A stretch of DNA of 43,864 bases from a virus (IMGVR_UViG_2711768005_000008); one strand, 5' to 3'; shown: positions 1-42,156, counted from the first letter of the stretch. The notes: generated from the sequence alone by a model not told the origin. Program-made: numbers and translations.

Positions 1-75
1 CTCTCGTCTGGGGAATATCTCCCCGGCAGCCTTCAGGGAAAAATATCATCAGATGGCTGCTTAAAAAAAGAACAA

Positions 76-306
76 ATGGTAGTGTCCGCTATTGCCAGTA
101 CACCTCAGCTATTACCTTCTTCAGAGAGCCCCCAGCTACTTCCTGTGACTCTCGATGCAGCTGCCGAACAGCCAGAATCGCTCGCAGAGGACCCGAAAAC
201 CCTCAGTATCAGCTGTGAGGTAACGTTCCGGCACGGGACGCTCCGCTTCAATGGCAATGTCAGCGAAAAGCTCCTGACTCTGCTGATACAGGAACTGAAG
301 CGATGA
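76..306 (+). CDS. IS66-family accessory protein (orf1/TnpA-like); frame is open back to position 1, so may be 5'-partial
   Basis: Stop overlaps the start of the IS66 TnpB-like ORF (ATGA at 303-306), the usual IS66 orf1-orf2 coupling; the ORF itself carries no motif I recognise. Confidence 0.45.
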   Translation: MVVSAIASTPQLLPSSESPQLLPVTLDAAAEQPESLAEDPKTLSISCEVTFRHGTLRFNGNVSEKLLTLLIQELKR

Positions 307-626
307 TCCCGTTACCTTCCGGGATCAAAATTTGGCTGGTTGCCGGTATCACCGATATGAGAAATGGCTTCAACGGCCTGGCTGCGAAAGTACAGACGGC
401 GCTGAAAGACGATCCCATGTCCGGCCATGTTTTCATTTTCCGGGGCCGCAGCGGCAGTCAGGTTAAACTGCTGTGGTCCACCAGTGACGGACTGTGCCTC
501 CTGACCAAACGGCTGGAGCGTGGGCGCTTCGCCTGGCCGTCAGCCCGTGATGGCAAAGTGTTCCTTACACAGGCGCAGCTGGCGATGCTGCTGGAAGGTA
601 TCGACTGGCGACATATAACCAGGTGA
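303..626 (+). CDS. tnpB: IS66-family TnpB (Orf2), probably lacking about 10 C-terminal residues
   Basis: Protein has IWLVAGITDMRNGFNGLAAKVQ / GHVFIFRGRSGSQVKLLW / DGLCLLTKRLE / FAWP, the conserved IS66 Orf2 signature; ORF ends exactly where the Mu-like left-end repeats begin. Confidence 0.8.
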   Translation: MIPLPSGIKIWLVAGITDMRNGFNGLAAKVQTALKDDPMSGHVFIFRGRSGSQVKLLWSTSDGLCLLTKRLERGRFAWPSARDGKVFLTQAQLAMLLEGIDWRHITR

Positions 627-630
627 ATCA

Positions 631-787
631 TTTGATACCGACAAGGGGTTTAGTGAAAGGAGGTGAAATCACCTGTAAGATACTGAAATAAAACAGGTGA
701 TGGCTAGATGTGCGGATAAGGTCTATTTGATACCGATTGTGCAATAATTAGTCATTTATTATAAAATCGGCAACTCATTTGATACTG
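631..787 (+). repeat. Left-end (attL-like) putative transposase-binding repeats: TTTGATACCG at 631-640 and 726-735, TTTGATACTG at 778-787
   Basis: Three direct copies in the first ~170 bp of the element, spaced like Mu L1/L2/L3; inverted copies at the other end. Confidence 0.5.
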
Positions 788-859
788 TGGTTTTAGTCTT
801 TTAAGGCGTTCCAAACAATGCGAAATACTCGATATAGTGCAAAATGCGGGCTAATGCTA

Positions 860-1405
860 TTAACCCGCTTTTGGTTCTACCGCGTTAGATTTGCGACTTC
901 TCTCAGTTTCTTCCAAAATCTCTCTGACGCGTTCGTCAGACATACCTTCAAGCTGTAATGCAGCTATTCTTTTCCTTCCTTCTAAGCGGATTAGATCTTG
1001 ATTTTCAGGCTCTAACAACCGAGCTAAGTACTTGGCTCCATTCAGAACCAAATTTTTCGATAGCTGCTCTAAGTCTTTTTCATCAAGTGCGCTGATAATC
1101 GTCATAATTATCTTCTTGCTTTCATCTTGATTTTCCTTGATCTCACACCGATTCACTTGTGATGCATCACTGAATCCACATAGCCACTCAACACTTACTC
1201 CTTCGATAGACGCAATCTGAAGGGCGACACTTAAGGATGGCTCAGTGCCACGAGACAGATAATTGTTTAGTGTTGAAAATGAAAGCCCCCAATCTCTTGC
1301 TGCAGCTCTGACGCTGCGGGAGCCAATCAGCCTTTTCAGACGCTCAGCAATGCTTTCTTTTCTACCACCAGGAAAAGAAAGAGATGTTGTTGTTTGCTTG
1401 TTCAT
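860..1405 (-). CDS. c: Mu-like repressor (c-like), 181 aa
   Basis: Divergently placed upstream of ner-A-B, size and position as in Mu; operator-like inverted repeats lie in the 1405-1590 intergenic region; no motif-level confirmation. Confidence 0.55.
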   Translation of the reverse strand: MNKQTTTSLSFPGGRKESIAERLKRLIGSRSVRAAARDWGLSFSTLNNYLSRGTEPSLSVALQIASIEGVSVEWLCGFSDASQVNRCEIKENQDESKKIIMTIISALDEKDLEQLSKNLVLNGAKYLARLLEPENQDLIRLEGRKRIAALQLEGMSDERVREILEETERSRKSNAVEPKAG

Positions 1406-1460
1406 TTTCTTTTCTTCCTATCAATTTGAAATTATTAACTTTTAGTGTTGTCAGCAACCA

Positions 1461-1523
1461 TTGATCCACAATAGACAAAAGAAAGATGTTTTTTTTGCTT
1501 TACATGAAGCAGAAGTGGATCAA
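1461..1523. promoter_or_regulatory. Operator-like inverted repeat TTGATCCAC (1461-1469) / GTGGATCAA (1515-1523) between c and ner
   Basis: 9-bp perfect inverted repeat pair about 45 bp apart in the divergent promoter region. Confidence 0.35.
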
Positions 1524-1537
1524 TACTTATATCAAAC

Positions 1538-1561
1538 TTGATAACTAAGTTTAGTTATCAA
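1538..1561. promoter_or_regulatory. Ner-operator-like palindrome TTGATAACTAAGTTTAGTTATCAA
   Basis: Near-perfect 11-bp inverted repeat 30 bp upstream of ner; contains TAACTAAGT, which resembles my recollection of the Mu Ner site consensus. Confidence 0.4.
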
Positions 1562-1590
1562 ATTTCGTAACTTTTTAGGATAGATGAATC

Positions 1591-1821
1591 ATGGCGAGAA
1601 ATGAAGTTAAGCCTGATTGGCATCCTCAAAGAATTTTGGGGGAAGTCAGAGCCAGAGAAGGAAGCATGAGGGCGCTGGCCCGTAAAGCTGGCGTGGGTCA
1701 GAACAATCTGTACAACGCGGTATACCGCCATGTTCCCAAGTATGAGGGGATTATCGCGGAATGCCTGGGGGTGCCGCCCGAGGAGATTTGGCCCAGCCGC
1801 TACATTCGTAAGGTCGCGTAA
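1591..1821 (+). CDS. ner: Ner-like DNA-binding protein
   Basis: 76 aa; ...DWH...LSALAR.AGV....L.NA..RH.PK.E.IIA..L...PEEIWPSRY aligns with Mu Ner; first gene of the early operon. Confidence 0.8.
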   Translation: MARNEVKPDWHPQRILGEVRAREGSMRALARKAGVGQNNLYNAVYRHVPKYEGIIAECLGVPPEEIWPSRYIRKVA

Positions 1822-1823
1822 TT

Positions 1824-3911
1824 ATGTTTGCTTCAGTTAAAGAACTGGTTGGATTACCGGGGATGCCGGGAACGGAGCAAGGCGTTCGCTATTCAATCAG
1901 GAAGTATGCAACCAGCGAAACCAGCAGACGCCGCAAGAAAGGCGCTAAAGGTTTTGAATACAGCATTGACTGTTTACCTGAAGTGACACAGCAGGCATTA
2001 CGCGAACGTTATGCCCTGCAACTGATGACGCAAAAAGCCGATGAATCACCGGCTCCGGTGGTGACAAAGGCCAGACGCTCGTCTGCCGTGGTTGATGCGG
2101 TGGAGGCATATCGCGGATCACCACAACTGATGGTCGAACGCCTCAATGCCCTGACTGAAAACCAGCGCCAGGTGGCAGACGCACGCATTGCGATCGTCAG
2201 TGAGGTGCTGAAATTCACGCAACAACCCGGTTTCAGCTGCGCTAAAGCTATCCGGTTCCTCGTTAACAGCCTGGCACGATCACAACTGGACGAGCGCATT
2301 GTGGCAATGGTTGAGACGGCGAACGCCAAAAAGGGAAACAGCCGCGCGTTGAGTGAAATCACGCTGAAACGCTGGATTGCGGCCTTTAACAAGGCACAGA
2401 ACGCCGCTGAACGCCTGCTTTTACTGGCACCGGGTAAACGCCAGGAAATAAAAGCCGAAGATATTAACTGGCTGCCCGAATTTCTGGCGCAGTATCGCCA
2501 GTCAAACGGCCGACCAATGACCGAGGCTTACGAGGATTTTGTTGCTGAATGGCAGCACCGGCACGCTGATGAGCCTTATATGCTCGATATCATGCCCTCT
2601 TATGACACCATTCGCCGCGCAATGAAGAAACTGCCGGAAGTGGTGAAACAAAAAGGCCGGGTAACTGGCAGTGAATACCGTCAGCTTGAGGGATTCACGC
2701 GCCGCGACTGGTCCAGAATGCCGGTGAATTATGTCTGGATTGGTGACGGTCACGGCATGAAGCTGAAATGCGCGCACCCGGTTCACGGGCGGCCATTCGC
2801 ACCGGAAGTGACCTTTGTTATCGACGGTGGCACGCGCTTTGTGGTGGGCTGGAGCCTTGACCTGGCTGAAAATGTTTTCGCCGTAGCCGGTGCCATACAG
2901 CACGGTATTCGCCATCATGGCAAACCGTTTCTGTATTACTCGGATAATGGCTCCGGGGAAACCGCCGACGTCCTGGATAAGGAGATTGTGGGGATACTGC
3001 CACGACTGGGGATTAATCACCCGACAGGGATTGCCGGTAATCCGCAGGGACGGGGCATTATCGAACGGCTTAACCGCACATTACCGATGCGCATAGCCCG
3101 TAAATACCGCACCTATTTCGGGAAAGGAGCAGATCGCGAGACGTTACGTAAAACCAACCGCGATTTACGCTCGGCATTCAGTGCCCTGCAACAGGGCAAA
3201 CGGCTGAACGCCCGGCAGCAGTCAGCGATGCGTGATTTACCGTCCTGGTCTGAACTGATTGATGCCATTCGTGACGGTGTTGAGTGGTACAACAACCGGC
3301 CGCACGATGAATTACCCATGAAGCCGAACGGTAAACATTACAGCCCGGCGGAGTTCAGAAAAAAACGCCTGGCGGAAGAGGACACGGAAATTGAATGGCT
3401 GTCCGATGTTGAACTGCGGGATATGTTCCGGCCGATGGTGGAGCGCCCTGTAAGACGCTGTGAAATACGCTGGCTGAATAATATTTACTACGCGCCCGAG
3501 CTGCGTGACGAGCATGGCCGTAAGGTACTTATCAGCTATGACATTCATGATGCCGAACGAATTACCGTGCGCCGCCCGGATGGCAGCGTGATTTGCGAGG
3601 CGGTATGGGACGGCAATAAACGCGAAGCCTTCCCTGTCAGCGCGGAATACTACAAACAGCAGCAGCGCCTTAAAGGCATGCGTAAACGCGCAGAGGAAAA
3701 AATCCGTGATGCCGAGGATGAGGTTGTCAACGTGCTGGAGCACAAGCCGCAGGAGCCCTGGCTGGAAAACATATACCGCCCTGTGGGTAATACGGTGACC
3801 GTTCAGCAACCGGTCGCTGACGATGAACCTGATGAAGAATACGAGCGTAATTTCCAGCGGGGATTGCAACTGCTCGAAGCGAAATTAAAAGAAAGTGATC
3901 CGCTGGCCTGA
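1824..3911 (+). CDS. A: Mu-type DDE transposase A
   Basis: 695 aa, follows ner; catalytic-core-like region VWIGDGHGMKLKC...FVIDGGTRFVVGW...YYSDNGSGE. Confidence 0.85.
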   Translation: MFASVKELVGLPGMPGTEQGVRYSIRKYATSETSRRRKKGAKGFEYSIDCLPEVTQQALRERYALQLMTQKADESPAPVVTKARRSSAVVDAVEAYRGSPQLMVERLNALTENQRQVADARIAIVSEVLKFTQQPGFSCAKAIRFLVNSLARSQLDERIVAMVETANAKKGNSRALSEITLKRWIAAFNKAQNAAERLLLLAPGKRQEIKAEDINWLPEFLAQYRQSNGRPMTEAYEDFVAEWQHRHADEPYMLDIMPSYDTIRRAMKKLPEVVKQKGRVTGSEYRQLEGFTRRDWSRMPVNYVWIGDGHGMKLKCAHPVHGRPFAPEVTFVIDGGTRFVVGWSLDLAENVFAVAGAIQHGIRHHGKPFLYYSDNGSGETADVLDKEIVGILPRLGINHPTGIAGNPQGRGIIERLNRTLPMRIARKYRTYFGKGADRETLRKTNRDLRSAFSALQQGKRLNARQQSAMRDLPSWSELIDAIRDGVEWYNNRPHDELPMKPNGKHYSPAEFRKKRLAEEDTEIEWLSDVELRDMFRPMVERPVRRCEIRWLNNIYYAPELRDEHGRKVLISYDIHDAERITVRRPDGSVICEAVWDGNKREAFPVSAEYYKQQQRLKGMRKRAEEKIRDAEDEVVNVLEHKPQEPWLENIYRPVGNTVTVQQPVADDEPDEEYERNFQRGLQLLEAKLKESDPLA

Positions 3912-3984
3912 AATAAAAAAATAACCCGAGGGGTGACTCAGGTTATTTGAGGTTTCAGTCTCGGAGAATGCTGTCTCAAGCGAG

Positions 3985-4926
3985 GTGAATAATATGACCG
4001 ATATTAACGATGTAATCAAGACCATTGATGAACTTATTGATGGCGGCGTACTGACGCAGTATGCCATCGCCAGAGAGGCGGGAATTTCCGACGGCACATT
4101 ATCGGCTTTCCGTAAGGGAAAATATAAAGGCGATAACGCTGCTGTGGCTGCTTCCCTGCGCTCCTGGTATGAGAACTGGAATAAACAAAGCGCACTGCCG
4201 GAACCGCCGCAGTTTGTGGAAACTCAGACAGTCCAGGAGCTGCGCGCACTGTTTCAGGCGGTTCGCCTGATGGGCTGTATTAACGTTATTGTGGGCGTAC
4301 CGGGTGTGGGTAAAACGGCCACTGCCCGTAATTACTGCCAGGAGCAACCAAACACCTGGATGATCACCCTGTCACCCGCGCACTCCAGCGTCACGGAGTG
4401 TCTGCTGGAGCTGGCCGATGCGCTGGGGATTGATTACACCCGCGCGAACAAAGGGGCATTATCCCGCGCCATCCGCCGTCGCCTGATGGGAACGCGTGGA
4501 CTGGTGATTGTGGATGAGGCGGATCATCTTGGTATTGACGGTCTGGAGCAACTCCGGGCAATTCAGGACGCCACGGGGATCGGGATGGTGCTTATTGGTA
4601 ACCCGCGCGGATTGTTTAAAGGTGGACGCCGCGCCTTTGATGATTTATCGCGCCTGTTCAGCCGTCTTGCCCGTACAAAACAACTTCGCAAGGCCAAAAA
4701 GGCGGATGTGCTGGCCATTGCCATGGCGTGGGGGATCAGTGGTGAGGCCGAGCTGGCCGTCATGCAGGCTATCGCTGAAAAGCCGGGAGCGTTACGCGTT
4801 CTGACACATACGCTTAACCAGGCGTGGCTCACCGCCAGCGGTGAAGGCGCGGCGCTGACAGAAAAACATATTAATGCGGCCTTTAAAGAGGTTTATACCA
4901 ACCCTGAATTACTCTCACAGGTGTGA
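3985..4926 (+). CDS. B: Transposition ATPase B (AAA+ target-DNA activator)
   Basis: 313 aa; Walker A VGVPGVGKT, Walker B VIVDEADHL; directly follows A. Confidence 0.85.
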   Translation: MNNMTDINDVIKTIDELIDGGVLTQYAIAREAGISDGTLSAFRKGKYKGDNAAVAASLRSWYENWNKQSALPEPPQFVETQTVQELRALFQAVRLMGCINVIVGVPGVGKTATARNYCQEQPNTWMITLSPAHSSVTECLLELADALGIDYTRANKGALSRAIRRRLMGTRGLVIVDEADHLGIDGLEQLRAIQDATGIGMVLIGNPRGLFKGGRRAFDDLSRLFSRLARTKQLRKAKKADVLAIAMAWGISGEAELAVMQAIAEKPGALRVLTHTLNQAWLTASGEGAALTEKHINAAFKEVYTNPELLSQV

Positions 4927-4928
4927 TT

Positions 4929-5150
4929 ATGGCGGTATTTAATATTCCTGATATTTACGGACGCTTTTACCTGGTTAATTTCGATAACGTGAAGGTGATT
5001 TCACTGGCCGAAAATAAAGAATGTGGCGATTTACTTTTTGAATTTAATGACCGCACACGAATGGTGATATCTGCCGGACTTGATCGCGAAGGTGCGACAG
5101 AAGTTTACAGCGGAATATGCCGTTCTGTTGGTGCGAAACAAGTCAGCTAA
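4929..5150 (+). CDS. hypothetical early protein
   Basis: ORF in the co-directional early operon, overlaps the B stop; function unknown. Confidence 0.4.
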   Translation: MAVFNIPDIYGRFYLVNFDNVKVISLAENKECGDLLFEFNDRTRMVISAGLDREGATEVYSGICRSVGAKQVS

Positions 5151-5162
5151 ATGAGGTGTTAT

Positions 5163-5417
5163 ATGAATATGCAATCCTGCGGTAACAAAATGAATTTATT
5201 CGACTCCCTGAACAGCGCGCGCCGTCTGACCGAACTTGCCGGTGCGGTACTGGAACGCAGTAAGCGCTATCCGCAACGTTTTGCACTGAAAACCACGCCG
5301 CCGGTAGGCAACGTGCAGGGAACCGGTGAAATTGAAATCACCATACAGACCAACGGCCTGCGCCGCCGTGTGAAGGCCACCCGCATCAGCGGCTGCACGG
5401 TTTACTGGGAGGTGTGA
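5163..5417 (+). CDS. hypothetical early protein (start ambiguous, 5151-5163)
   Basis: ORF in early operon. Confidence 0.4.
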   Translation: MNMQSCGNKMNLFDSLNSARRLTELAGAVLERSKRYPQRFALKTTPPVGNVQGTGEIEITIQTNGLRRRVKATRISGCTVYWEV

Positions 5418-5418
5418 G

Positions 5419-5700
5419 GTGAAAAAAAATCTCATTGCATGGGCGTGGTCGAGTGGTCTTATTGAGTTTGGTTACGTCCTGCCGGAAGGTGCATTGCCGA
5501 TAGTTGCCGGAAAGCCTGCCACGGTACGGCATGTGATTGAGGTTATGGCGCGTCATGGACGTGATGAACAGGAGCAGTTACTGGTTCCGGGGATACCGGA
5601 AGCGGTGACGGAGGAAGAAGCCTTTAATGCCATGATTCGGTTCTGCCGTGAGGTTAGACGCCGGGTCAGTTATCCAAACAGAACGAGGACCAGAGGATGA
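5419..5700 (+). CDS. hypothetical early protein (GTG start)
   Basis: ORF preceded by GGAGG, tightly packed with its neighbours. Confidence 0.4.
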   Translation: MKKNLIAWAWSSGLIEFGYVLPEGALPIVAGKPATVRHVIEVMARHGRDEQEQLLVPGIPEAVTEEEAFNAMIRFCREVRRRVSYPNRTRTRG

Positions 5701-5969
5701 GTAAAGTCGTACGCATTATTTTCGAATACAAGGAAGATGTTATCTGCAAAAACTCTGATGGCAGCACGCACAGAGGGGTAAGTCTGGATATACGTTCAAC
5801 CGGAATAAAGAAGAAAGATAATGGACCCGCCATGATTTTTGGGGTGGTTATGCTGGCAGAAAGCAGAAACTTCGCAGAGTTTGTGGCAATGAAAGCCAGT
5901 GCATTCATGAAAGACAGAGGCATGGCTTCCGGGGTTATTAACGGTAATGAATTTAATCAACAGGGGTAA
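5697..5969 (+). CDS. hypothetical early protein, paralog A (MSKVVRIIFEY...)
   Basis: ORF; N-terminus resembles the next ORF. Confidence 0.45.
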   Translation: MSKVVRIIFEYKEDVICKNSDGSTHRGVSLDIRSTGIKKKDNGPAMIFGVVMLAESRNFAEFVAMKASAFMKDRGMASGVINGNEFNQQG

Positions 5970-5973
5970 TTCC

Positions 5974-6267
5974 ATGAGCAAAGTACGCGTTATTTTTGAA
6001 TTTAATCATGTTTCGCATGACGAAAAGTTGGCAGGCAATGACTGTGTTGAAGTGCATGAAAAGATTGGAGTGGATGTGAAAACAGAACGTGATACGGATA
6101 ACAGGCCGACGTCACTCTGTGACGTTTATGCAAGTATTCTCCAGTATCACAGTCCTGCAATTATTCAGTTTCTCTCAGCGGAATTTCAGGCATCTGCACA
6201 GTCTTTTGGAGCGGATGCCATCATTAAACGCCACCGCGTGCATAAAGCATCAGGCACACTGCAATAA
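5974..6267 (+). CDS. hypothetical early protein, paralog B (MSKVRVIFEF...)
   Basis: ATG at 5974 preceded by a purine-rich stretch; N-terminus parallels the 5697 ORF. Confidence 0.45.
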   Translation: MSKVRVIFEFNHVSHDEKLAGNDCVEVHEKIGVDVKTERDTDNRPTSLCDVYASILQYHSPAIIQFLSAEFQASAQSFGADAIIKRHRVHKASGTLQ

Positions 6268-6278
6268 GGAAAAACAAA

Positions 6279-6809: not shown

Positions 6810-6954
6810 CACCGCATTAATCAATTAAATATCACTTCATTTTAATTATGGCGCTCGCGTCAGGGGACTGCTTGCGCCTGAAAACAGAAAATAAGGGTTA
6901 AGAAATATGAAATACGTTTATATCGTCATTAATAATGTGGTGGGGAAATAAATC

Positions 6955-8003: not shown

Positions 8004-8006
8004 TGC

Positions 8007-8558: not shown

Positions 8559-8887
8559 TAACGACCTTATTTGTTGAATCAGATGAACCTCTTGTGTGTG
8601 CCGCCGGAATGCCGCTCTGTGGCGGAACGCTGACCGGCGTTTATTTCGGGGATTTGCGCGGTTATCCCTGGCATTCACTGGATGACGCATTTCCGCCTGA
8701 TATGGAGGCTGTCGTGCTGATTGTTCAGTATGGTGACCAACAGGAACTGCGCATCGGCCATATGGGGTATGAAGGCTTTTTTATTGATGAAGAAACCGGA
8801 GCCTGCCTTGAAGATGAGGACGGACAGGTGACGCACTGGTGCCATCTTTCGGCCTTGCCGGAATTACAGGGGATACATAATGGATGA
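8555..8887 (+). CDS. hypothetical protein
   Basis: 110-aa ORF overlapping its neighbours. Confidence 0.4.
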   Translation: MITTLFVESDEPLVCAAGMPLCGGTLTGVYFGDLRGYPWHSLDDAFPPDMEAVVLIVQYGDQQELRIGHMGYEGFFIDEETGACLEDEDGQVTHWCHLSALPELQGIHNG

Positions 8888-9023: not shown

Positions 9024-9024
9024 T

Positions 9025-18069: not shown

Positions 18070-18190
18070 CGGTCAGTGGCGGGGGTCGAACCCGCATACA
18101 TGATCCACCCGGAGGCAGGCACCGACTTTACCAGTTAAGCGTACACTGACCGCCTGTTTATTTTATATTCATCCTTTATGCGGAGGCAAT

Positions 18191-32255: not shown

Positions 32256-33136
32256 TGTTTCATGTTGATAATAATTCCGGCGTGGCGAATATGCCTGCGC
32301 TGGCACCGGCGCAGAGTAATACCACCACCTGGTTTACCGAAGGTGACGGACAAAAAGGTATCAGCTGGATTGGTCAGGACTGGCTGAATATTCTCCAGGC
32401 CGAACTGCTGAATATTCTGGCTGAAGCCAGTATTCAGCCGGATAAGGCGCAGTTAAACCAGCTTACGCTGTCCATTAAAGCCATTATCGCTGCGAATGCC
32501 TTTTCCCGGAAAAATAACCTGAAAGAAATTGCTGATGCCGGTGCGGAGGCCCAGCGTCTGGCCCGTGGTTATCTTGGTCTGGGGACGCTTGCCACAAAAA
32601 ACAGTCTTGGTCCCGCTGACGTTAATGCCCTGGCGAAGGATCAGAATCTCGCCGACCTGGAGAATAAGGGAACCGCCCGTAATAATCTGGATGTTTACAG
32701 CAAAAGCGAAGGTGATAACCGTTACCTGCGCAGGGAGCAGAACGGCGCAGACATTCCGGATAAAGGGGCTTTTATCGATAACGTCGGTTTACGGGAAACG
32801 GTAAACAGGGCGGCGAATGCCCTGCCATCGGACGGCACCGCCGTTGCCGCGAACAGGCTGGCAAATGCCCACACAATTAATGGTGTTCCCTTTGACGGGA
32901 CGCAGGATATCACTATCTCATCAGGAACAGTAACCGCCATAAGACTGGGGTCGGTGACCGCACATATGCCCGGAACATGGGAAAGCTGGGATCTGAATCT
33001 GGGGGGCGGCAATGTTCTTACCGGAATTAAAGTACAGGATGTCGGTAAGAATACGGCAGATAACGTCGGCGGCGTGTATTACCGGCCGTTGCAGTATCTG
33101 TTAAATGGAGCATGGGTGACGGCTGCAAGTATATAA
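32255..33136 (+). CDS. S: Tail fibre protein S (constant part plus variable C-terminus Sv from 32798)
   Basis: [13 protein letters not shown] motif; the gene is crossed by the left gix-like site at 32772-32797. Confidence 0.8.
32772..32797 (+). promoter_or_regulatory. Left inversion crossover site (gix/hix-like 26 bp): TTATCGATAACGTCGGTTTACGGGAA
   Basis: Matches the gix/hix half-site pattern from memory; inner half TCGGTTTACGGGAA is identical in the right-hand site. Confidence 0.6.
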
Positions 33137-33167
33137 TGATATTCAGAAGGCCTTCCGGCCTTCTTTA

Positions 33168-33689
33168 TTACTGTGGCTGCTCAGGCCATTTAATGGCGTT
33201 AAATTCAGCTTCTGTTTTAATGGCGGGTAGTTCCATTTTCTTCACCTGACTGATGTATGCCATCCATTGGGTAAGTGCTGCTCTGTCTTCATCGCTGATG
33301 GTGCCCAGTTGTAGCTCCGTTCTCCAGTCATTAATTTTTTCATATGCCTGATTAAGATATGACTGGCGCATTGCTTCCAGTTTTCTTGCGTAGTTAACCG
33401 GAATACGGGAGATTATGCCATTATCAAACTTCCAGTTTCCTGAAATATCCGTGCCTTCAGGGAGTTCATCGACCTCAACCACAGAAAACCCCGCAGGATA
33501 CAGCGCCGAGGCGTCCTGTGATATTGAGCAGATAACGCCGCTGTCAGGTGTTATGCAAAGTTTATATTTTTTGGTGAATAATGGCAGGGATTCGTAGAAA
33601 TCCTTACCATCTTCACTCTGGAAATACTGAACATTATTACCATATGGCATATTTTCAGGATAATAACGGGTTATATTTTTTAGTTCCAT
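33168..33689 (-). CDS. Tail fibre assembly protein U' (for the alternative fibre orientation)
   Basis: 173 aa on the minus strand inside the invertible segment, AGGAGG RBS, downstream of the Sv' cassette. Confidence 0.7.
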   Translation of the reverse strand: MELKNITRYYPENMPYGNNVQYFQSEDGKDFYESLPLFTKKYKLCITPDSGVICSISQDASALYPAGFSVVEVDELPEGTDISGNWKFDNGIISRIPVNYARKLEAMRQSYLNQAYEKINDWRTELQLGTISDEDRAALTQWMAYISQVKKMELPAIKTEAEFNAIKWPEQPQ

Positions 33690-33776
33690 AAAATCCTCCT
33701 GGAAATAAATCTGTTTTAAAATATATTATTTACTGACTATTTATAACTGAGATACCGTAATCCATGTACCTCCGAC

Positions 33777-34088
33777 TAATTTTTGCAGGGGTCTGAATGC
33801 TATAAAATCGTTTGAAGCATCAACTTTACTGTCAATCTGCAGGCCTGCCATAACATTACCGTACGCAGAGTAATATGCCCCACCGTACATTACCTGCCTG
33901 TTCTCTGCTCCCAGCCTGATATCCTGGATATATCGGGAATCCGCATCCTGCTGTGTTATACCAGAAGTGATGTTTATGTCCTGCGTCCCGTCAAAGGGAA
34001 CCCCATTAATATTTCTTGGGGTGGCGAGTCTATTCGCGGCAACGGCGGTGCCGTCCGATGGCAGAGCATTCGCCGCCCTGTTTACCGT
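33777..34088 (-). other. Sv' - alternative tail-fibre C-terminal coding cassette without its own start, joined to S upon inversion
   Basis: Minus-strand frame continuous from the right gix site: [47 protein letters not shown]...FIAFRPLQN, stop at 33777-33779. Confidence 0.65.
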
Positions 34089-34114
34089 TTCCCGTAAACC
34101 GAGGTTTTCAGGAA
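34089..34114 (-). promoter_or_regulatory. Right inversion crossover site (reverse complement TTCCTGAAAACCTCGGTTTACGGGAA)
   Basis: Outer half TTCCTGAAAACC nearly matches the gix/hix consensus half-site as I recall it. Confidence 0.65.
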
Positions 34115-34179
34115 AGCCAGGATTAACTCTGTTTTATTCCTCATGCGACAATTCCGGCTTTTTATAATAAGGAAATCGT

Positions 34180-34752: not shown

Positions 34753-34837
34753 CGCTTTTTTGAATTTCCGCAAAACACATATTTTTCAGCGGTCGCTATT
34801 CTGACTCTGTTTAATTCAGAAACAGGCAGAAAAGACG

Positions 34838-36892
34838 ATGTCAGACTCCAAGTGGAAAATGCTCTCCGCCATGCCCGGAGAGTTTTCAGTCAAGGTTGCC
34901 GGTGGCACGGTGGCATTTATTGAAAGCCCTTTCCGCCCTTCGGGTAATAAAGGGGGGATCACCTTCGCAGACTGCGTGATCCGCTTCAGCACGAAAGAGC
35001 CATTATGGGTAATGCCGGTATCCGGTAATCCCAGTGCAGAAATCACCAGTTCAGGCGTGACTGGCATCATTCCAATCACATCTGACGTGGCCGGAACGCT
35101 CACGCCCTCCGACTGGAATGCACCGGATAACGCCGGGCCTTCCGGTAGCACGAATGGCAGCAGTTCAGAGCCGGAATATTACTTTGTTGTCATTCTCGCG
35201 GGTCAGTCAAATGGCATGGCCTACGGCGAGGGGCTGCCGTTACCGGATTCGTTTGACCGCCCGGACCCACGCATTAAGCAACTGGCACGCCGCAGTACGG
35301 TAACGCCCAACGGTACGTCGTGTACATACAACGACATCATTCCGGCAGACCACTGCCTGCATGATGTTCAGGATATGAGCGGGATAAACCACCCGAAAGC
35401 TGATCTGGCAAAAGGCCAGTACGGGACTGTCGGTCAGGGGTTGCATATTGCCAAAAAACTGCTTCCCTATATCCCACAGAATGCCGGGATACTTCTGGTG
35501 CCCTGTTGTCGTGGCGGGTCAGCATTCACCACTGGAGCCGACGGCTCATTCAGTGAGGCCAGCGGTGCTTCCGCTGATTCTTCACGCTGGGGGGCCGGTA
35601 AACCTCTGTATCAGGACCTGGTAAGCCGCACCAAAGTCGCGCTGGCGAAAAACCCGAAAAACAAACTTCTGGCTGTGGTCTGGATGCAGGGAGAGGCAGA
35701 CCTTGCCTCAGGAAGCCAGCAGCATAATAGTTTATTCACGGCCATGGTTCAGCAGTTCAGAACTGACCTGGCTCCGCTTGCTGCGCAGTGCGTGAGTGGA
35801 AATGCCACCACGGTGCCGTGGATTTGCGGTGATACCACGTATTACTGGAAAAACGCTGGCACCGATAAATATGAGGCAGTATACGGTGGCTACAAAGGCA
35901 AGGAAGCACAGAAAATTTTCTTTGTACCGTTCCTGACGGATGAGAATGGACAGAGCACGCCAACGAATGCTCCGGCGGAAGACCCGGATATTGTGGCTGT
36001 CGGGTATTACGGTGCAGCATCCCGAACCCAGGGCAGTTTTGTTTCGACACAGCGTGACAGCCATTTCAGCTCATGGGCACGCAGGGGCGTCATTTCAGAC
36101 CGTCTGGCCTCAGCTATTATGCTCCATGCAGGGCGCACGGCTGAACTGATGCGTGGGCAGACCGTGACACCACCGGATGAGAAGCCGTCACCTGATACAC
36201 CATCAAAACCGTCCACGCCACCCGCAGACACCACGACGATGAGTACGCTATTTGCTTACCGGGCATCTGAGTCTGAAGGACGGTTGACACCACAGGGTTG
36301 GGCTGCCGGAGGTGGCAAGGCTCAAATCGTGGATGATGCCGGAGCCAGCGGGGGTAAGGCAATGAAACTGACCAAGGAAACAGGAAGAGCCCCCTGGTAC
36401 CTTGAGCATGATGCTGGTAATGGTGCGGACCTGCTGGGTAAAGGTGGTCTTGTCAGTTGTCGTTTTAAACTCGATGGCGCGCTTACGGCTAATCAGTACG
36501 CACTGGCGCTGTACTGGCCGGTTTCTGCCCTGCCGCAAGGGGTTACTCTGGAAGGAAATGCCGGTCATAACCTGCTGGCATCGTTCTACGTACAGAGCGA
36601 TGCCACAGACCTTAACGTGATGTATCACAAAGGAAACACGGCGCAGAACACGAAGCTGGGGTCATTCGGCGCATTTAATAACGAATGGCATACGCTGGGC
36701 TTCCGTTTTGCCGGTAACAACAGTATTGAGGTGACGCCGGTCATTGATGGTAAGGACGGGACACCATTCATGCTGTCGCAGTCTCCGGTCGGCACGTTTA
36801 CGGCAGACAAGTTGCGCGTGACCGATATCACTAAAAATGCGACTTACCCGGTACTGATTGACAGTATCGTGGTGGAAGTGAATAACGCGTAA
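34838..36892 (+). CDS. SASA/SGNH-hydrolase-family carbohydrate esterase (sialate O-acetylesterase-like, NanS-p-like) with N- and C-terminal extra domains
   Basis: GQSNGMAYG nucleophile motif (residue ~125), VVWMQGEADL block, later DSH; 684 aa; sits between gin and com/mom, where Mu has no gene. Confidence 0.6.
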   Translation: MSDSKWKMLSAMPGEFSVKVAGGTVAFIESPFRPSGNKGGITFADCVIRFSTKEPLWVMPVSGNPSAEITSSGVTGIIPITSDVAGTLTPSDWNAPDNAGPSGSTNGSSSEPEYYFVVILAGQSNGMAYGEGLPLPDSFDRPDPRIKQLARRSTVTPNGTSCTYNDIIPADHCLHDVQDMSGINHPKADLAKGQYGTVGQGLHIAKKLLPYIPQNAGILLVPCCRGGSAFTTGADGSFSEASGASADSSRWGAGKPLYQDLVSRTKVALAKNPKNKLLAVVWMQGEADLASGSQQHNSLFTAMVQQFRTDLAPLAAQCVSGNATTVPWICGDTTYYWKNAGTDKYEAVYGGYKGKEAQKIFFVPFLTDENGQSTPTNAPAEDPDIVAVGYYGAASRTQGSFVSTQRDSHFSSWARRGVISDRLASAIMLHAGRTAELMRGQTVTPPDEKPSPDTPSKPSTPPADTTTMSTLFAYRASESEGRLTPQGWAAGGGKAQIVDDAGASGGKAMKLTKETGRAPWYLEHDAGNGADLLGKGGLVSCRFKLDGALTANQYALALYWPVSALPQGVTLEGNAGHNLLASFYVQSDATDLNVMYHKGNTAQNTKLGSFGAFNNEWHTLGFRFAGNNSIEVTPVIDGKDGTPFMLSQSPVGTFTADKLRVTDITKNATYPVLIDSIVVEVNNA

Positions 36893-36907
36893 GCAGGATA
36901 AAAAAAT

Positions 36908-36940
36908 GCCGCCGGTAAGGGAAAACAAGAAACCGGCGGC
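36908..36940 (-). terminator. Stem-loop GCCGCCGGT-N15-ACCGGCGGC, with T-run on the minus strand (A-run upstream on plus)
   Basis: Perfect 9-bp stem; likely terminates minus-strand transcription and possibly the esterase transcript. Confidence 0.4.
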
Positions 36941-37024
36941 AAAAAGATCGTTATATCCAAAGCAAAAAATGCAGTGCACCTTTTTACCTAACAGATATTA
37001 CCGGTGTCAACACCATGTCAATAA

Positions 37025-37219
37025 TTGGGAGGGATAATGACATTTTTACAGCTTATTTTATTGTATTTCTGCACGGCAGTATGTGCGTTATATCTGGTGA
37101 GTGGTGGTTATAAGGCCATCAGAAATTATGTTCGCCGCAAAATTGAGGACGCAGCAGCTGAAAAACTCAGTAAAACAGCGCAGGTAACTCCGCTCCCAAA
37201 AGACCCGACCCAGCCCTGA
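37025..37219 (+). CDS. hypothetical small membrane protein
   Basis: Hydrophobic N-terminus FLQLILLYFCTAVCALYLV. Confidence 0.3.
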   Translation: MGGIMTFLQLILLYFCTAVCALYLVSGGYKAIRNYVRRKIEDAAAEKLSKTAQVTPLPKDPTQP

Positions 37220-37254
37220 TTGCAGGGCTTTATTCCCGCATAAGGAGGATATAC

Positions 37255-37509
37255 ATGCCAGAAATTAAAGGCACCGTCACTGAAGACCTGGTAAAACAGG
37301 CACTGTATTCCGGTGAAGTAAATAAGTTGCTGAAAGCGCAGGTCCGCAAGGATTTTGAGGCACAAATCGACACTTACGTTGATGAAGTGCTGGCAAAACT
37401 TATTGGGCCAGCAGTTGCGGCCAGTGATGCTGATAATGAGCCGAAAACCGACGCGCAGCCAGAGCAACCAGACCCGGCTCAGCCCGGAACTGACAGTACC
37501 ATGATGTAA
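37255..37509 (+). CDS. hypothetical protein, acidic/proline-rich C-terminus
   Basis: ORF with AGGAGG RBS. Confidence 0.4.
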   Translation: MPEIKGTVTEDLVKQALYSGEVNKLLKAQVRKDFEAQIDTYVDEVLAKLIGPAVAASDADNEPKTDAQPEQPDPAQPGTDSTMM

Positions 37510-37676
37510 CAATACAAACCGGTGGTGTCCTCTGCCGGTTTGACACTAATGAAAACATCTTTGCCGCTATCCAGCCATATGTAATCGCTGGATAGTATTT
37601 CGTATTCAGAAATATAGCTGCTTATGGAGCAGTCAATCCTGCTTCCCCATCCGGGCAGGCAAATGAACCGGTATCA

Positions 37677-37970
37677 TTAGTCCGATTCACGCTTTTGTAG
37701 AATCGTTCCCAGAATGCTATACAGCTCATTAGCCTGTTGCTCCATCATTGAGACGGAGGCTATACGGTGCAAAGTGATTTCAGGAGGTGGCACACCTCCA
37801 TCTTCTTGCTGTGGAGGAAAAACATAAGATTTAATAAAAAAGTTGAAGCATATGAACTCTCCCGCACTCGAACTGTATTTGCAGGCATCTGAATAATCGG
37901 AAAAATAATCATTATAGATTTCCGCATTTTCAATCATTTTTCGATTTCTCGTCGTTACATGATTGTCCAT
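37677..37970 (-). CDS. hypothetical protein (minus strand, AT-rich - likely horizontally acquired)
   Basis: 97-aa ORF, lower GC than the surrounding phage genes. Confidence 0.35.
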   Translation of the reverse strand: MDNHVTTRNRKMIENAEIYNDYFSDYSDACKYSSSAGEFICFNFFIKSYVFPPQQEDGGVPPPEITLHRIASVSMMEQQANELYSILGTILQKRESD

Positions 37971-38093
37971 AGCAGCCTCTTACGCTGGCAATTAACCAAT
38001 TGACTTCTATAAATTAGTTGATTTGTTTGCTTTGCGGTATTCAAATGTACAATCATTCAGCACTTATGCGTTACAGCACCGTTTAAAATTAGT

Positions 38094-38179
38094 GATCAAA
38101 CTCATAAATTTTCGCTAATGACATTTCGTGTTATTTGTTGTATCAATTAAATAAATCAAATCGATCGTTTTTGTCGATC
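38094..38179. promoter_or_regulatory. Cluster of three GATC (Dam) sites upstream of com/mom (38094-38097, 38163-38166, 38176-38179)
   Basis: Resembles the Dam/OxyR-controlled mom promoter region of Mu. Confidence 0.4.
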
Positions 38180-38226
38180 GATTGAGTGATAAAGATATCA
38201 ACAACAAAGCAGGAGGTTATGCGGCC

Positions 38227-38427
38227 ATGTATCGAAACATACGGTGCCGACATTGTAACAAGCTACTGGCACGAGCCAGCTTCAGTTATCTGGAAGTTAA
38301 ATGTCCGCGCTGTAAAACCCTCAATCAAATCACATCTCAGAGCGCCACAGAGCACCCCACATACACAAGGAAATCCTGTCGTGGGGAACAGAAAGCAAGT
38401 TACATCCCGTATCATCAGCACGCCTGA
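38227..38427 (+). CDS. com: Com-like zinc-finger translational activator of mom
   Basis: [10 protein letters not shown]...EVKCPRCK with the same C4 arrangement as Mu Com; overlaps the mom 5' end. Confidence 0.7.
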
Positions 38428-39118
38428 ACTTATTCACTATAACGACAATATCGTCGGTTATGGCTCCCGTGAGTTACGGGTTGAGACAATAAGTTGCTGG
38501 CTGGCCCGGCTGGTCGTCGTCAATAAACATTACAGCCATCGTTTCGTAAATAATTCCTACCTTCATCTGGGCATATTTTCAGAACGGGAGCTGGTTGGCG
38601 TAATGCAATGGGGTTATGCCCTTAATCCAAACAATGGTGCACGCGTCGTAACTGGCACGCAGAACCGCGAATATATGGAGCTTAACCGGTTATGGCTGCA
38701 TGACTGTATGCCGAGAAACTCCGAATCAAGGGCAATCAGTTACGCGCTCAAACTAATCAGACAACTTTATCCGCAGGTGCAGTGGGTTCAGTCGTTTGCA
38801 GATGAGCGTTGTGGCTGTCTTGGTGTCGTGTACCAGGCAAGCAATTTTGATTATGTAGGCAGTCATGAAACAACATTCTATGAACTTGATGGCGAGTGGT
38901 ATCACGAGATTTGCAAGAATGCAATCAAACGAGGAGGACAGCGAGGTGAACATCTGCGGGCTAATATCGACAGAGCCAGTGTTCATAAATTCCGTCAGTT
39001 TCGTTACATCCGGTTTCTGGACAAGAGAGCCAGAAAACGCCTTAACACAAAGCTATTCAAAGTCCAGCCTTACCCAAAACCACAAACAGTTAAAACTGGT
39101 TTGAAAGAGAGTGAATGA
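38381..39118 (+). CDS. mom: Mom-like DNA modification protein (start codon uncertain; frame open from 38186, GTG 38381 proposed)
   Basis: Last gene before the right end, overlapped by com, preceded by the GATC cluster. Confidence 0.6.
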
Positions 39119-39163
39119 ACGCTTAAAAACTCATTCTAAAACTCAAAAGAAAAGCGCCGATTT

Positions 39164-39229
39164 AGTATCAAATAAGTTGCGTATCGGCGTTTTTCAGCGG
39201 TATCAAATGAAATGCAAATCGGTATCAAA
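39164..39229 (-). repeat. Right-end (attR-like) repeats: inverted copies of the left-end motif (AGTATCAAA 39164-39172; CGGTATCAAA 39198-39207 and 39220-39229)
   Basis: Reverse complements of TTTGATACCG clustered within 65 bp after mom. Confidence 0.5.
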
Positions 39230-39336
39230 AAAATCGCCGCGCTATAGACAGCCTAAGCGGCTGCTGACCTCCCTGACCATGCTGTAAATCTCTTTATCCT
39301 GGTTGTCACAGAATAAGCCCGGTAAAATACGGGCTT

Positions 39337-39795
39337 ATGAACGACATCTCTTCTGACGACATCTTCCTGCTGAAACAGCGCCTTGCCGAACGTCAGTTGA
39401 AAACGAAACCGCTGCTGAAATCCCTGGAAAGCTGGCTGCGTGAAAAGATGAAAACCCTGTCGCGACACTCAGAACTGGCGAAAGCGTTCGCATATGCCCT
39501 GAACCAGTGGCCGGCGCTGACGTACTATGCAGATGATGGCTGGGCTGAGGCGGACAATAACATCGCTGAAAATGCGTTGCGGATGGTCAGTCTGGGCCGC
39601 AAAAACTACCTGTTCTTCGGTTCGGATCATGGAGGAGAGCGGGGAGCGCTGCTGTACAGCCTGATCGGGACGTGCAAACTGAACGGAGTGGAGCCAGAAA
39701 GCTACCTCCGCTATGTCCTTGACGTCATAGCCGACTGGCCGATAAACCGGGTCGGCGAACTGCTCCCCTGGCGCGTAGCACTGCCGACTGAATAA
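39337..39795 (+). pseudogene. tnpC: IS66-family transposase TnpC, C-terminal fragment only (N-terminal ~two-thirds absent)
   Basis: ...MKTLSRHS.LAKAFAY.L.QW.....Y...GW.E.DNNIAENALR....GRKN.LF.GSD.GGE..A.LYSLIGTC.LN.VEPE..LRYV...I.DWP.NRV..LLPW matches the IS66 TnpC C-terminus. Confidence 0.75.
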
Positions 39796-39797
39796 CA

Positions 39798-39832
39798 CAT
39801 TCCCGTCAATACGGTTCTTGCTGCACGCTTAC
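39798..39832 (+). repeat. Probable IS66 right terminal inverted repeat (ends ...CGCTTAC)
   Basis: IS66-family IRs begin 5'-GTAA (recalled, not checked); the downstream tail-fibre frame is open right up to this point. Confidence 0.4.
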
Positions 39833-41021
39833 GGTAAACACCCCGGAAGTGGTGATGCACACTGTTGCTGATGTGATGACAGGAAACGATGGTGAATACT
39901 GTTTCCATGCGCGGACTGGAAAATATGGTGTGTATCTGAAACCGGGCTGGCACAACGAGTACAACGTTGGCGACATTGCTGTATACGACGACTCAAAGCC
40001 CGGCACGCTGAATGACTTTCTGATTGCTCCTGATGAGGGCGACCTGAAACCGGATGTCGTCAAACGCTTTGAGGAAATGGTGGCGCAGGCGCAGCAGAGC
40101 GCCGGGGCCGCAGCCGGAAACGCACAGCAGACGGCGCAGGATGTGGCGGCAGCCGCAGGTTATGCCCGCGCAGCAGAGCAGGCCAAAAATGACATTGATG
40201 CTGCGCTGACCGGCACTCTGAAAACGGCTAACCATCTGTCTGAAATCGCAGCAGCAGGCGAAAAGGCACAACAGAAGTCCCGGGATAATCTGGGGCTGAA
40301 AAGTGCGGCCACGATGGAAGCACAGAGCGACATTTACGACCGGACAAAAGGCCGTCTGGCGATACCCGGCGCATTCGGCTTTGGGTGTGCTTTTCTGCCT
40401 GAAGATGTTATCCGTTTTGACACTAAGAGTGATTTCCTGGCCTGGGTAAGGAATGCGCTGCCAGGTGAATATTCCGTTGCTGGCCCCTACGACATCATCA
40501 TACCCGACACACGGTTTGAAGGGGTGCTCAGCATCCGGTGGACTGATGCACGCCCTGAGACAACAGAACCGAGGTACAGAGCCAAATCCCTTACTTTTTA
40601 CGGCATTAACGGCCCCATTTATCACACCCGCTACTGCTACTGGCCCATATCCAGACTGACTGGCTGGGTGAAAATAAATATAACCACAGAAGATATTATT
40701 TACAGAATCGTGGCGAGCTCTGTCTGCAACAGATGGGGAGACCCTGACATTGGCGGGCTGATTATTGCTGCGTACCAGGGAGAAGCTGACGGTGATAAAG
40801 TCATCAGACTTGTCAGGGGGCAGTCATACAGAGGCTCACGACTGGGACCGGTGGGGATTTCAGTGCCCAGTACTCCCACCGGAACGTATATAGCATCCCC
40901 ACAATTTTTCATTACGGGATGTTCAGAGCATTCATTACCGGGGTCATATAGCGCCCTGTCCGGGGTGCCGGATGCTCATGTCTCTGGCGCAATGCCCGGG
41001 CTTTTTATTCGCACATCGTGA
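39833..41021 (+). pseudogene. Tail fibre gene, 3' portion (5' part displaced upstream by the IS66/Mu-like insertion)
   Basis: Frame is open from the IS boundary with no plausible native start; Ala/Gln-rich shaft region then a C-terminal globular part; followed by a putative tail-fibre assembly gene. Confidence 0.55.
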
Positions 41022-41031
41022 GGAATGCACC

Positions 41032-41595
41032 GTGGAAATTAAAAAAATCATTAATCCCCGTTATACCGAAAGTGGCGCAGTAGACTGTGACGTTTTTTTT
41101 GACGACAGGGACCAGGCAGTCCCCTACACAGCCACCGCTGATGATGTCGCACCGACGGGTCAGCGAATCTGGCAGGAACTGCAAAGTGGCAAATGGGGTG
41201 AGATAGCCCCATTCACTGTGACACCAGAAATGCTGGAAGCGGCCAGAGAGGCCAGACGTCAGGAAATTGAAGCATGGCGCACAGAACAGGAGGCGAAGCC
41301 GTTCACGTTTGAATGGAATGGTCGTATCTGGAATGCTGGCCCCGACTCACTGGGCCGCCTGTCCCCGGTAGTCATGCTGGCAAAATCTGTCACAGCACAA
41401 ACGCATATGGCGTGGGGTGATGCCGATAATCAGCAGGTGAAACTGTCGATGCCGGAACTGGAAGAACTGGCGGCAGCAATGGTGCAGGCGCAGGTCGATC
41501 GCAACGATGAGATTTATCGCCGTCAGCGTGAAATGAAAGAGGAGCTGAGTGGTCTGGAGGATTTGGGAACAATTAGAGCGTTTGATGTTACGTAA
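41032..41595 (+). CDS. Putative tail fibre assembly / tail-fibre-associated protein (start ambiguous: 40972, 40978 or GTG 41032)
   Basis: Position immediately downstream of the tail fibre; AGGAA before GTG 41032. Confidence 0.45.
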   Translation: MEIKKIINPRYTESGAVDCDVFFDDRDQAVPYTATADDVAPTGQRIWQELQSGKWGEIAPFTVTPEMLEAAREARRQEIEAWRTEQEAKPFTFEWNGRIWNAGPDSLGRLSPVVMLAKSVTAQTHMAWGDADNQQVKLSMPELEELAAAMVQAQVDRNDEIYRRQREMKEELSGLEDLGTIRAFDVT

Positions 41596-41644
41596 TTGGT
41601 AAGCTGCATCGTGTTAAATTGTTACCCTTATTTACAACTAGAAA

Positions 41645-41676
41645 AGCCTCTGACTTCATAATCAGAGGCTTTTTTG
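41645..41676 (+). terminator. Rho-independent terminator (GCCTCTGA-loop-TCAGAGGC followed by TTTTTT)
   Basis: Perfect 8-9 bp stem plus T-tract about 50 bp after the tfa-like stop. Confidence 0.55.
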
Positions 41677-41793
41677 AAATGCACGTGCATTTTGCGTGTA
41701 TATTTTTGTCTTTTTCTGGTCCGCTTACTGTCTGGTCAGTGTCCGTAAGTGACTGTTTTTATAGTCTCTGTCCGGTTGCAGTCCTGTCAAAAG

Positions 41794-42156
41794 TGGTGGA
41801 GCTGGCGGGAGTTGAACCCGCGTCCGAAATTCCTACATCCTCGGTACTACATGCTTAGTCAGTCTTTACATTCGCTTGCCAGCTGCGGACGGACACGCCA
41901 CTAACAAACTAGCCTGATTAAGTTTTAACGCTTCAACCCCAGGCAGGGCTTCCACGCGATCTCTTTTGGGTTTGACCTCTCTTGATCCCCGTCCTAAGAG
42001 CGGAGGCTAGGGAGAGAGGGCTCTAAGCAGGTTATTAAGCTGCTAAAGCGTAGTTTTCGTCGTTTGCGACTATTTTTTGCGGCTTTTTACGAGGCCAACC
42101 GCCCCTCGGCATGCACCTTGGGTTTCGCAAATCCCGTCGAATCCAGAATCAGCCCC
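41794..42156 (-). ncRNA. ssrA: tmRNA (SsrA), 363 nt
   Basis: 5' GGGGCTGATTCTGGATTCGACGGG, tag ORF GCAAACGACGAAAACTACGCTTTAGCAGCTTAA (ANDENYALAA-stop), 3' end ...GGGTTCAACTCCCGCCAGCTCCACCA. Confidence 0.95.

Follow-up and report, generated by a model that had tools for sequence, protein, structure and literature searches.

A Mu-like prophage lies inside an insertion sequence (IS) of the IS66 family, which in turn lies inside a phage tail-fibre gene, in a stretch of 43,864 nucleotides listed as viral (IMGVR_UViG_2711768005_000008; hereafter, the window) that also holds ssrA, the gene for transfer-messenger RNA (tmRNA). In what order did these elements arrive, and does their present arrangement preserve the place where each of them inserted? 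The initial annotation, made from the sequence alone, read the answer from the layout itself: a phage resident at ssrA acquired IS66 in its tail-fibre gene, and a Mu-like phage then entered the IS. Comparison with related genomes leads us to another answer. In our reading, to which we assign a probability of roughly 0.8, the window is a Shigella sonnei contig holding a series of ordinary mobile-element events in four steps, one of which is a secondary join to ssrA.

S. sonnei genomes are rich in IS elements and prophage remnants, and nested insertions are routine in Shigella. Every element of the window is of a known kind (ISEc8, IS600, IS4, an Sp18-like Mu-like phage, a P27-like ssrA prophage remnant and ssrA itself), and the whole is an ordinary mosaic of mobile elements already known. 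Exact-protein look-ups found three of the proteins described below, the deleted TnpC, the truncated tail-fibre protein and the DUF4376 protein, in the chromosomes of S. sonnei 53G (HE616528.1) and 75/02 (CP019689.1), and again in FORC_011 (CP010829.1) and FDAARGOS_90 (CP014099.2) (strain names from PMC5447701). A complete S. sonnei genome that carries the Mu-like prophage, CP176614.1, is 99.99% identical to the window across 10.6 kb. The IS600/ISEc8, ISEc8/tail-fibre and Mu/ISEc8 junctions gave 0 exact matches in species-representative genomes, metagenomes and viral contigs. Among the complete E. coli genomes of the collection, none contains the ISEc8/tail-fibre junction and none covers either end of the window.

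A Mu-like prophage inside tnpB of an ISEc8 copy

The left and central parts of the window consist of the following features.

1–107, plus strand: right end of IS600 (C-terminal end of the transposase and terminal repeat ...CACCTCA), 99% identical to annotated IS600
108–613, plus strand: ISEc8 positions 275–780, comprising the 3' part of tnpA (108–306) and the first 104 codons of tnpB (303–613), 99.2–99.4% identical to full-length ISEc8-family copies
610–613: GACA, left copy of a 4-bp target duplication
614–39246, plus strand: Sp18-like Mu-like prophage, 38,633 bp
39247–39250: GACA, right copy of the 4-bp target duplication
39251–39287, plus strand: last 11 codons and stop codon of ISEc8 tnpB, whose frame is restored on joining 613 to 39251
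39337–39795, plus strand: ISEc8 tnpC with a 1,080-bp in-frame internal deletion, encoding 152 residues
39812–39832, plus strand: right terminal inverted repeat of ISEc8, CGGTTCTTGCTGCACGCTTAC, the same as the right end of full-length copies with 8-bp duplications
39833–41021, plus strand: tail-fibre gene without its first 27 codons (Pfam phage_tail_N; paralogue alignment)

The flanks of the prophage are 99.2–99.6% identical to 2,442-bp ISEc8-family copies in E. coli and keep the tnpA-tnpB-tnpC order, with a Pfam match to TnpB_IS66 (E = 1e-37) in the part at 108–613. This alignment, which the initial annotation had suggested, bears out its proposal that IS66 sequence lies in the same orientation on both sides of a Mu-like prophage of ~38.6 kb. 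Two details of the proposal need correction. The prophage does not separate tnpB from tnpC; it interrupts tnpB (614–39246) at codon 104 of 115, and excising it in silico together with one GACA restores a TnpB of 115 residues that ends in ...GIDWRQPKRLLTSLTML and a stop codon. In addition, the first IS66 reading frame had been started at 76, and the ATG there lies in IS600; tnpA of IS66 is present only from IS position 275 (window 108–306).

Genomes lacking the Mu-like element, also put forward earlier as a useful comparison, supply the exact empty site in S. sonnei. From window position 1 to 41318, the prophage-excised sequence has 0 mismatches to two Mu-free S. sonnei loci (L011 and L020), and hence the empty site exists in nature. 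A single GACA marks this site in Mu-free genomes.

The inserted element has the form TATAACC...GCGCTATA, with the terminal sequences TATAACCAGG... and ...CCGCGCTATA. Clusters of ATTTGATAC lie near the two ends in inverted orientation, with three copies at 630–785 on the plus strand, two at 39165–39208 on the minus strand, and one variant. The motif is confined to within 175 bp of the prophage ends and occurs nowhere else in the window (5 found versus 0.3 expected), and we regard the clusters as putative transposase-binding repeats. A MuA-type transposase and a MuB-type ATPase adjoin the repressor/ner region at the left end, and Pfam matches among the prophage proteins are to Mu-transpos_C, HTH_Tnp_Mu_1, Phage-MuB_C, Resolvase and Mom. 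Among deposited phage records, the closest label the element as an inserted Mu-like phage. In E. coli HH35, a prophage matches it with 99.5% identity across the full element length, and the left end is 99.6–99.9% identical to prophages at unrelated sites in other E. coli. All of the 55 genes annotated in the copy of E. coli 600029 are present, full length and uninterrupted in the window prophage.

The insertion had been described as recent. A perfect 4-bp duplication, 55 intact genes and an empty site in most S. sonnei genomes agree with that description, and the prophage may plausibly still be active. The chimeric TnpB' protein made by the insertion occurs in 110 collection blocks, versus 457 for the deleted TnpC. 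These counts, together with the empty site in Mu-free genomes, indicate that only a sublineage has the insertion, which postdates the IS. Present in about one quarter of the collection blocks with this ISEc8 copy, the prophage is a clean, lineage-restricted S. sonnei marker with a possible use in typing.

The ISEc8 copy that received the prophage is dead: its tnpA is split by IS600, its tnpB by the prophage, its tnpC is deleted, and its left tip is missing. IS600, a member of the IS3 family, is accompanied by a 3-bp duplication (GCT, at 108–110). The whole of IS600 occupies the same spot of tnpA in CP176614.1 and in other S. sonnei genomes, and one locus (L018) has the empty site, GGGAAAGCTGCTATTACC. 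In tnpC, residues 1–18 are fused in frame to residues ~379–513 of 513, with 360 codons gone, and the deletion sits at a 16-bp microhomology. The initial annotation was right to assign 39337–39795 to IS66 TnpC, although calling it the C-terminus left out the 18 N-terminal residues. The product matches Pfam DDE_Tnp_IS66 only over profile positions 195–283 of 284, most of the catalytic domain being gone, and it is not predicted to be a functional DDE transposase. Mu-free S. sonnei genomes carry the same deleted tnpC. Because the deletion is common to Mu-free and Mu-positive genomes, it probably preceded the Mu-like insertion, and the comparisons support the order ISEc8, tnpC deletion, Mu-like phage.

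Of the ISEc8 terminal repeats (GTAAGCG.../...CGCTTAC), the right one is at 39812–39832, and the left end of the IS lies outside the window. The IS lacks its first 9 bp in CP176614.1 and in Mu-free S. sonnei genomes, where it borders directly on an element of the IS110 family. The cut falls exactly at position 10 in all related genomes, the neighbour being of the IS110 family in complete genomes and IS1 in drafts of the L010 type. The ISEc8 reference (2,442 bp, 8-bp duplication) has the identical right terminal repeat and, unlike the window copy, is intact.

The initial annotation also had the right end of IS66, at 39832, abutting an open tail-fibre frame, and this is what we find. The repeat that ends there (...CGGTTCTTGCTGCACGCTTAC) is followed by GGTAAACA (39833–39840), presumably the right copy of the ISEc8 target duplication. 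Intact E. coli copies of ISEc8 carry 8-bp duplications; the window copy has the right-hand GGTAAACA only. The tail-fibre frame is open from 39834 and is in frame with codon 28 of an intact paralogue of 422 residues. Given that this frame aligns from residue 28 onward, and that the Pfam phage_tail_N match starts at profile position 35, it follows that the IS66 copy lies within a tail-fibre gene. Neither the missing 81 bp at the 5' end of the gene nor another GGTAAACA was found within 6–10 kb upstream in any related genome, where IS elements and plasmid-like remnants occupy the region. The earlier expectation of an IS66 terminal repeat, a second GGTAAACA and the tail-fibre 5' part upstream of the window was not borne out in CP176614.1, which has none of the three within 8–10 kb; taken literally, this is an outcome that the initial annotation had named as refuting its proposal.

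The nesting of a Mu-like phage in IS66 in a tail-fibre gene thus stands. The count of three layers does not, as the IS600 insertion in tnpA, the tnpC deletion and IS4 come in addition.

Two paralogous remnants and the link to ssrA

The complete S. sonnei genomes displayed contain two related prophage remnants, which we call locus A (the ssrA-linked, P27-like remnant) and locus B (the ipaH-linked remnant). The right part of the window is best read against both.

39966–41318: 1,353-bp stretch identical in locus A, locus B and the window (three-way alignment, mismatch positions)
40972–41595, plus strand: DUF4376 (tail-fibre-assembly-like) gene (Pfam DUF4376)
41794–42156, minus strand: ssrA (tmRNA), intact (ARAGORN, Rfam)
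42371–42853, minus strand: smpB, chromosomal
42985–43461, plus strand: ratA, chromosomal
ending at 43741, plus strand: yfjF, chromosomal
43769–43864, plus strand: first 96 bp of IS4, with no E. coli match past 43768

Locus A contains, in order, Mu-like baseplate genes (one of them cut by IS1), a tail-fibre assembly gene, an intact tail-fibre gene of 422 codons, DUF4376, ssrA, smpB, ratA, yfjF and IS4. Locus B contains an IS110-family element, ISEc8 (with IS600, an intact tnpB and the deleted tnpC), the truncated tail-fibre gene, DUF4376, ipaH and a resolvase fragment. The two loci lie ~90 kb apart in inverted orientation within one genome, as seen in GCA_965230875.1 (L020, L027) and in 53G (L013, L043). 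In all of the complete genomes displayed, the ISEc8-disrupted tail-fibre copy is linked to ipaH and the copy at ssrA is intact.

In the three-way alignment the window agrees with locus B as far as 39965 and with locus A from 41319, and the 1,353 bp between are identical in all three. The window is thus a hybrid, with B on its left and A on its right, and the switch falls inside this shared stretch. It differs from locus B at 15 positions of DUF4376, all of them at 41319–41591. The 3' part of this gene, from 41319, is the ssrA-locus version, and the protein is identical to that of the ssrA-locus copy in complete S. sonnei genomes. Farther right, 41597–43864 is 100% identical to locus A of CP023645.1, including the 96 bp of IS4, and the IS4 transposase gene follows there.

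E. coli STEC308 has a complete P27-like Stx2e prophage with which locus A is collinear at 92–97% identity. This prophage ends at ssrA; at its far end lies an integrase, and the last 27 bp of ssrA are repeated there. The attachment core of 27 bp corresponds to 41794–41820, and the copy beside the STEC308 integrase is identical to it. We took the presence of both ends as the test of integration at ssrA; the STEC308 prophage has both, and the window holds the ssrA-proximal end only. On the strength of the collinearity, locus A is the true ssrA-integrated phage. P27-like ssrA prophages and the window have in common a tail-fibre and DUF4376 module directly beside the ssrA 3' end. They differ in that the ISEc8-bearing tail-fibre copy sits in the other, ipaH-linked remnant. 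The STEC308 prophage also carries stx2e-type toxin genes, with IS2 between stxA and stxB (L073 18044–20620).

These comparisons bear on the simplest account of the window, namely that it preserves the original arrangement, IS66 having inserted in place into the tail-fibre gene of the ssrA phage before the Mu-like phage arrived. The elements are indeed contiguous, with the tail-fibre and DUF4376 genes abutting ssrA (the DUF4376 gene ends at 41595, 198 bp from 41794, in line with the ~200 bp reported earlier for a tfa-like gene), and P27-like prophages of E. coli naturally end with this pair beside ssrA. Three observations nonetheless make the account very improbable: the ISEc8-bearing copy is by ipaH and the intact gene at ssrA in every complete S. 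sonnei genome displayed, the window matches locus B up to 41318 and locus A thereafter with all 15 differences packed beyond the switch, and collinearity with the E. coli prophage is shown by the remnant whose tail fibre is intact. On the last of these grounds we also rejected the hybrid as the ancestral arrangement. The disrupted tail-fibre gene should therefore not be counted as part of the ssrA-linked prophage, and of the order proposed earlier, IS66 followed by the Mu-like phage holds while the ssrA phage followed by IS66 does not. From the sequences compared, the ISEc8 insertion did not take place in the ssrA-resident phage, and the adjacency to ssrA is secondary or artefactual.

How was the left flank of locus B joined to the right flank of locus A? 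The hybrid itself is plain from the alignment; the process that made it we infer from the contigs and genomes at hand. We lean slightly toward an assembly artefact, in which a short-read assembler would have merged the two copies of the 1,353-bp repeat and continued into the wrong flank, thereby joining B to A. The switch occurs exactly where the two loci share the same sequence, a perfect repeat that exceeds the usual insert length of libraries, and the window begins 107 bp within IS600 and ends 96 bp within IS4, much as a contig of short reads does when it stops at repeats. The majority of assemblies are interrupted at this point, with 340 of 490 blocks placing the ssrA-type DUF4376 protein on contigs of 2–5 kb, and the hybrid context is found in 0 of the 24 longest contigs with either flanking protein. 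Against an artefact, conservative assemblers normally halt at such repeats, and other assemblies seem to contain this join as well.

Alternatively, the hybrid may be real and specific to a strain or sublineage, a possibility we rate at somewhat under even odds. Here, RecA-type homologous recombination between the inverted 1,353-bp repeats would have inverted the ~90-kb segment and so brought ISEc8, with its Mu-like prophage, beside ssrA. Exact inverted repeats of 1.35 kb are adequate RecA substrates. The contig does cross the repeat, and several other assemblies seem to have the ssrA-type DUF4376 on contigs large enough to contain the Mu-like prophage. However, both repeat copies would persist after such an inversion, so a short-read contig across the repeat is not strong evidence, and the inversion is seen in no complete genome. 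In CP176614.1, the only complete Mu-positive genome, the locus lies at 1,014,829 in forward orientation and is not rearranged on its left side. Locus B of the Mu-free genome GCA_965230885.1 lies at 1,015,709, in the same place and orientation, with locus A at 917,851–930,030, reversed. An inversion between A and B would have shifted and flipped the locus, which in CP176614.1 has its standard position and orientation.

Whichever process joined the flanks, the comparisons support the following course. First, ISEc8 inserted after codon 27 of the tail-fibre gene in the ipaH-carrying prophage remnant. The IS was then inactivated: it lost its left tip and, by slippage or recombination at the 16-bp repeat, 1,080 bp of tnpC, and it received IS600 in tnpA, perhaps at this stage too. 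Third, a phage of the Sp18-like Mu-like kind, itself intact, transposed into tnpB in a single sublineage of S. sonnei, duplicating GACA. Finally, the locus would have been joined to ssrA secondarily, by crossing to the second P27-like remnant within the inverted 1,353-bp repeat.

Several observations weigh against this course or against the way we have read parts of it. S. sonnei assemblies show every one of the four possible combinations of presence and absence of IS600 and the Mu-like prophage, which does not suit a simple linear order: both are present in the window and CP176614.1, IS600 without the prophage in most complete genomes, the prophage without IS600 in L010 and 22 similar contigs, and neither in L018. 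Repeated insertion of IS600, draft mis-joins or transfer of the prophage by homologous recombination are possible causes of this pattern. The left ISEc8/tail-fibre junction is gone from all genomes seen, which leaves the 8-bp duplication represented by its right copy only. As for the join to ssrA, seven blocks have the ssrA-type DUF4376 on 20–50-kb contigs, and one Mu-positive draft contig, at 47.9 kb, exceeds the length that a break at the repeat, or at the multi-copy ipaH, would leave. Such long contigs are compatible with a hybrid locus that truly exists in some, if not all, of the Mu-positive lineage. In addition, the right-hand side of CP176614.1 was deduced from coordinates rather than read directly.

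The link to ssrA illustrates a wider point. Orders of events read from a single contig may mislead where paralogous prophage remnants share identical segments of kilobase length.

Beyond the right end of the window, the neighbour of IS4 after yfjF varies. In 53G, bamE-recN follows (the normal E. coli order), and raiA-pheA follows in many other S. sonnei. The latter neighbour indicates an IS4-mediated rearrangement right beside the locus.

Target duplications and termini in the Sp18-like group

Mu duplicates 5 bp of its target and has TG...CA termini. The window phage shows neither the 5-bp duplication nor 5'-TG...CA-3' ends. To see this as a property of a group, we can turn to the Sp18-like phages, in which 4-bp direct repeats flank 6/6 independent insertions in six genomes. 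The six duplications are GACA, TACG, AACA, CGCC, GACG and AGCT, and the six insertion sites are in tnpB, dgc, sgrR, a P2 capsid gene, bcsA and rhs. The termini are TATA...TATA in the window phage and TGTA...TATA in the O157 and 53G type. We also considered whether the phage ends might be shifted so as to give a 5-bp duplication, and rejected this; it suits only one of the six insertions, by chance.

On these data, it is about an even bet that the Sp18-like group transposes with a stagger of 4 bp instead of 5 bp, and that this variant has TA rather than TG/CA as terminal dinucleotides. If so, their MuA-family transposase would differ in the geometry of strand transfer and in how it recognises the phage ends, a variant for which we found no characterisation. 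A limited literature search found no description of a 4-bp duplication in this phage group, and its consistency may interest researchers who work on transposition mechanisms.

Resemblance to Mu and SfMu extends to MuA/MuB-type machinery, end-clustered putative transposase-binding repeats, effectively random insertion sites, Com/Mom and a Gin-invertible segment. Nucleotide identity to these phages, by contrast, is only ~72% and limited to short stretches, and their duplication is 5 bp versus 4 bp for the window phage. The nearer relatives are Sp18 of E. coli O157:H7 Sakai and Sp18-like phages of Shiga toxin-producing E. coli, which share the gene order, A and B, Mor, Gam, a Gin-type invertible segment and Com/Mom. 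Sp18-type prophages are 92–93% identical to the window phage at the nucleotide level, compared to 99.5–99.9% for other E. coli prophages. The Sp18 type (O157, 53G) differs in its immunity region and in its left terminus, TGTA versus TATA in the window phage. Sp18 of O157 Sakai is reported to be intact and packaged (PMC2669165), and 6/10 Sp18-like phages were found inside other mobile elements (PMC10132054).

S. sonnei 53G has a different Mu-like prophage in the same tail-fibre gene of locus B (L013 7090–7200, equivalent to window 40460). It is inserted ~630 bp from the ISEc8 end, its left end reads TGTAACC..., and its immunity region is different. From the A gene onward it is 99.3% identical to the window phage, compared to ~78% at the extreme left end, and the repressor region between has no match. 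The 10 bp of target adjacent to its junction (CCAGGTGAAT) are the same as positions 6–15 of the phage end.

Gene content of the prophage and RNA genes

The genes and segments assigned within the prophage are as follows.

860–1405, minus strand: repressor
~1590–1820: ner-like gene
1824–3911: A transposase
3994–4926: B
downstream of B, in this order: kil/gam/mor, lysis, head and tail genes
~32767–34118: invertible tail-fibre segment
34180–34752: Gin-like recombinase
34838–36892: DUF6645, 684 residues
38227–38427: com
38381–39118: mom

The region at 32767–34118 resembles a G segment. It is bounded by inverted repeats of ~140 bp that are 87% identical, and its minus strand carries an alternative tail-fibre end and an assembly gene. 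Between gin and com/mom lies a cargo block (34838–37970) with DUF6645, DUF1378, DUF826 and a small minus-strand open reading frame. A PADLOC search for defence systems gave no credible match for DUF6645, DUF826 or the neighbouring small proteins. An open reading frame of 58 codons that runs across the right Mu junction is not on record.

ssrA is the sole RNA gene at the gathering threshold when ARAGORN and Rfam are run on the whole window. It matches RF00023 with 295.8 bits over model positions 1–374, and ARAGORN predicts the tag peptide ANDENYALAA. A tRNA-like sequence of 80 nucleotides lies at 18071–18150 on the minus strand, between the head-morphogenesis and virion-morphogenesis genes. It was missed by ARAGORN and by the whole-window Rfam scan, but in a scan of the small region alone it reached 31 bits with Rfam, the gathering score being 29. 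In E. coli copies of the prophage, NCBI annotates this sequence as tRNA-OTHER.

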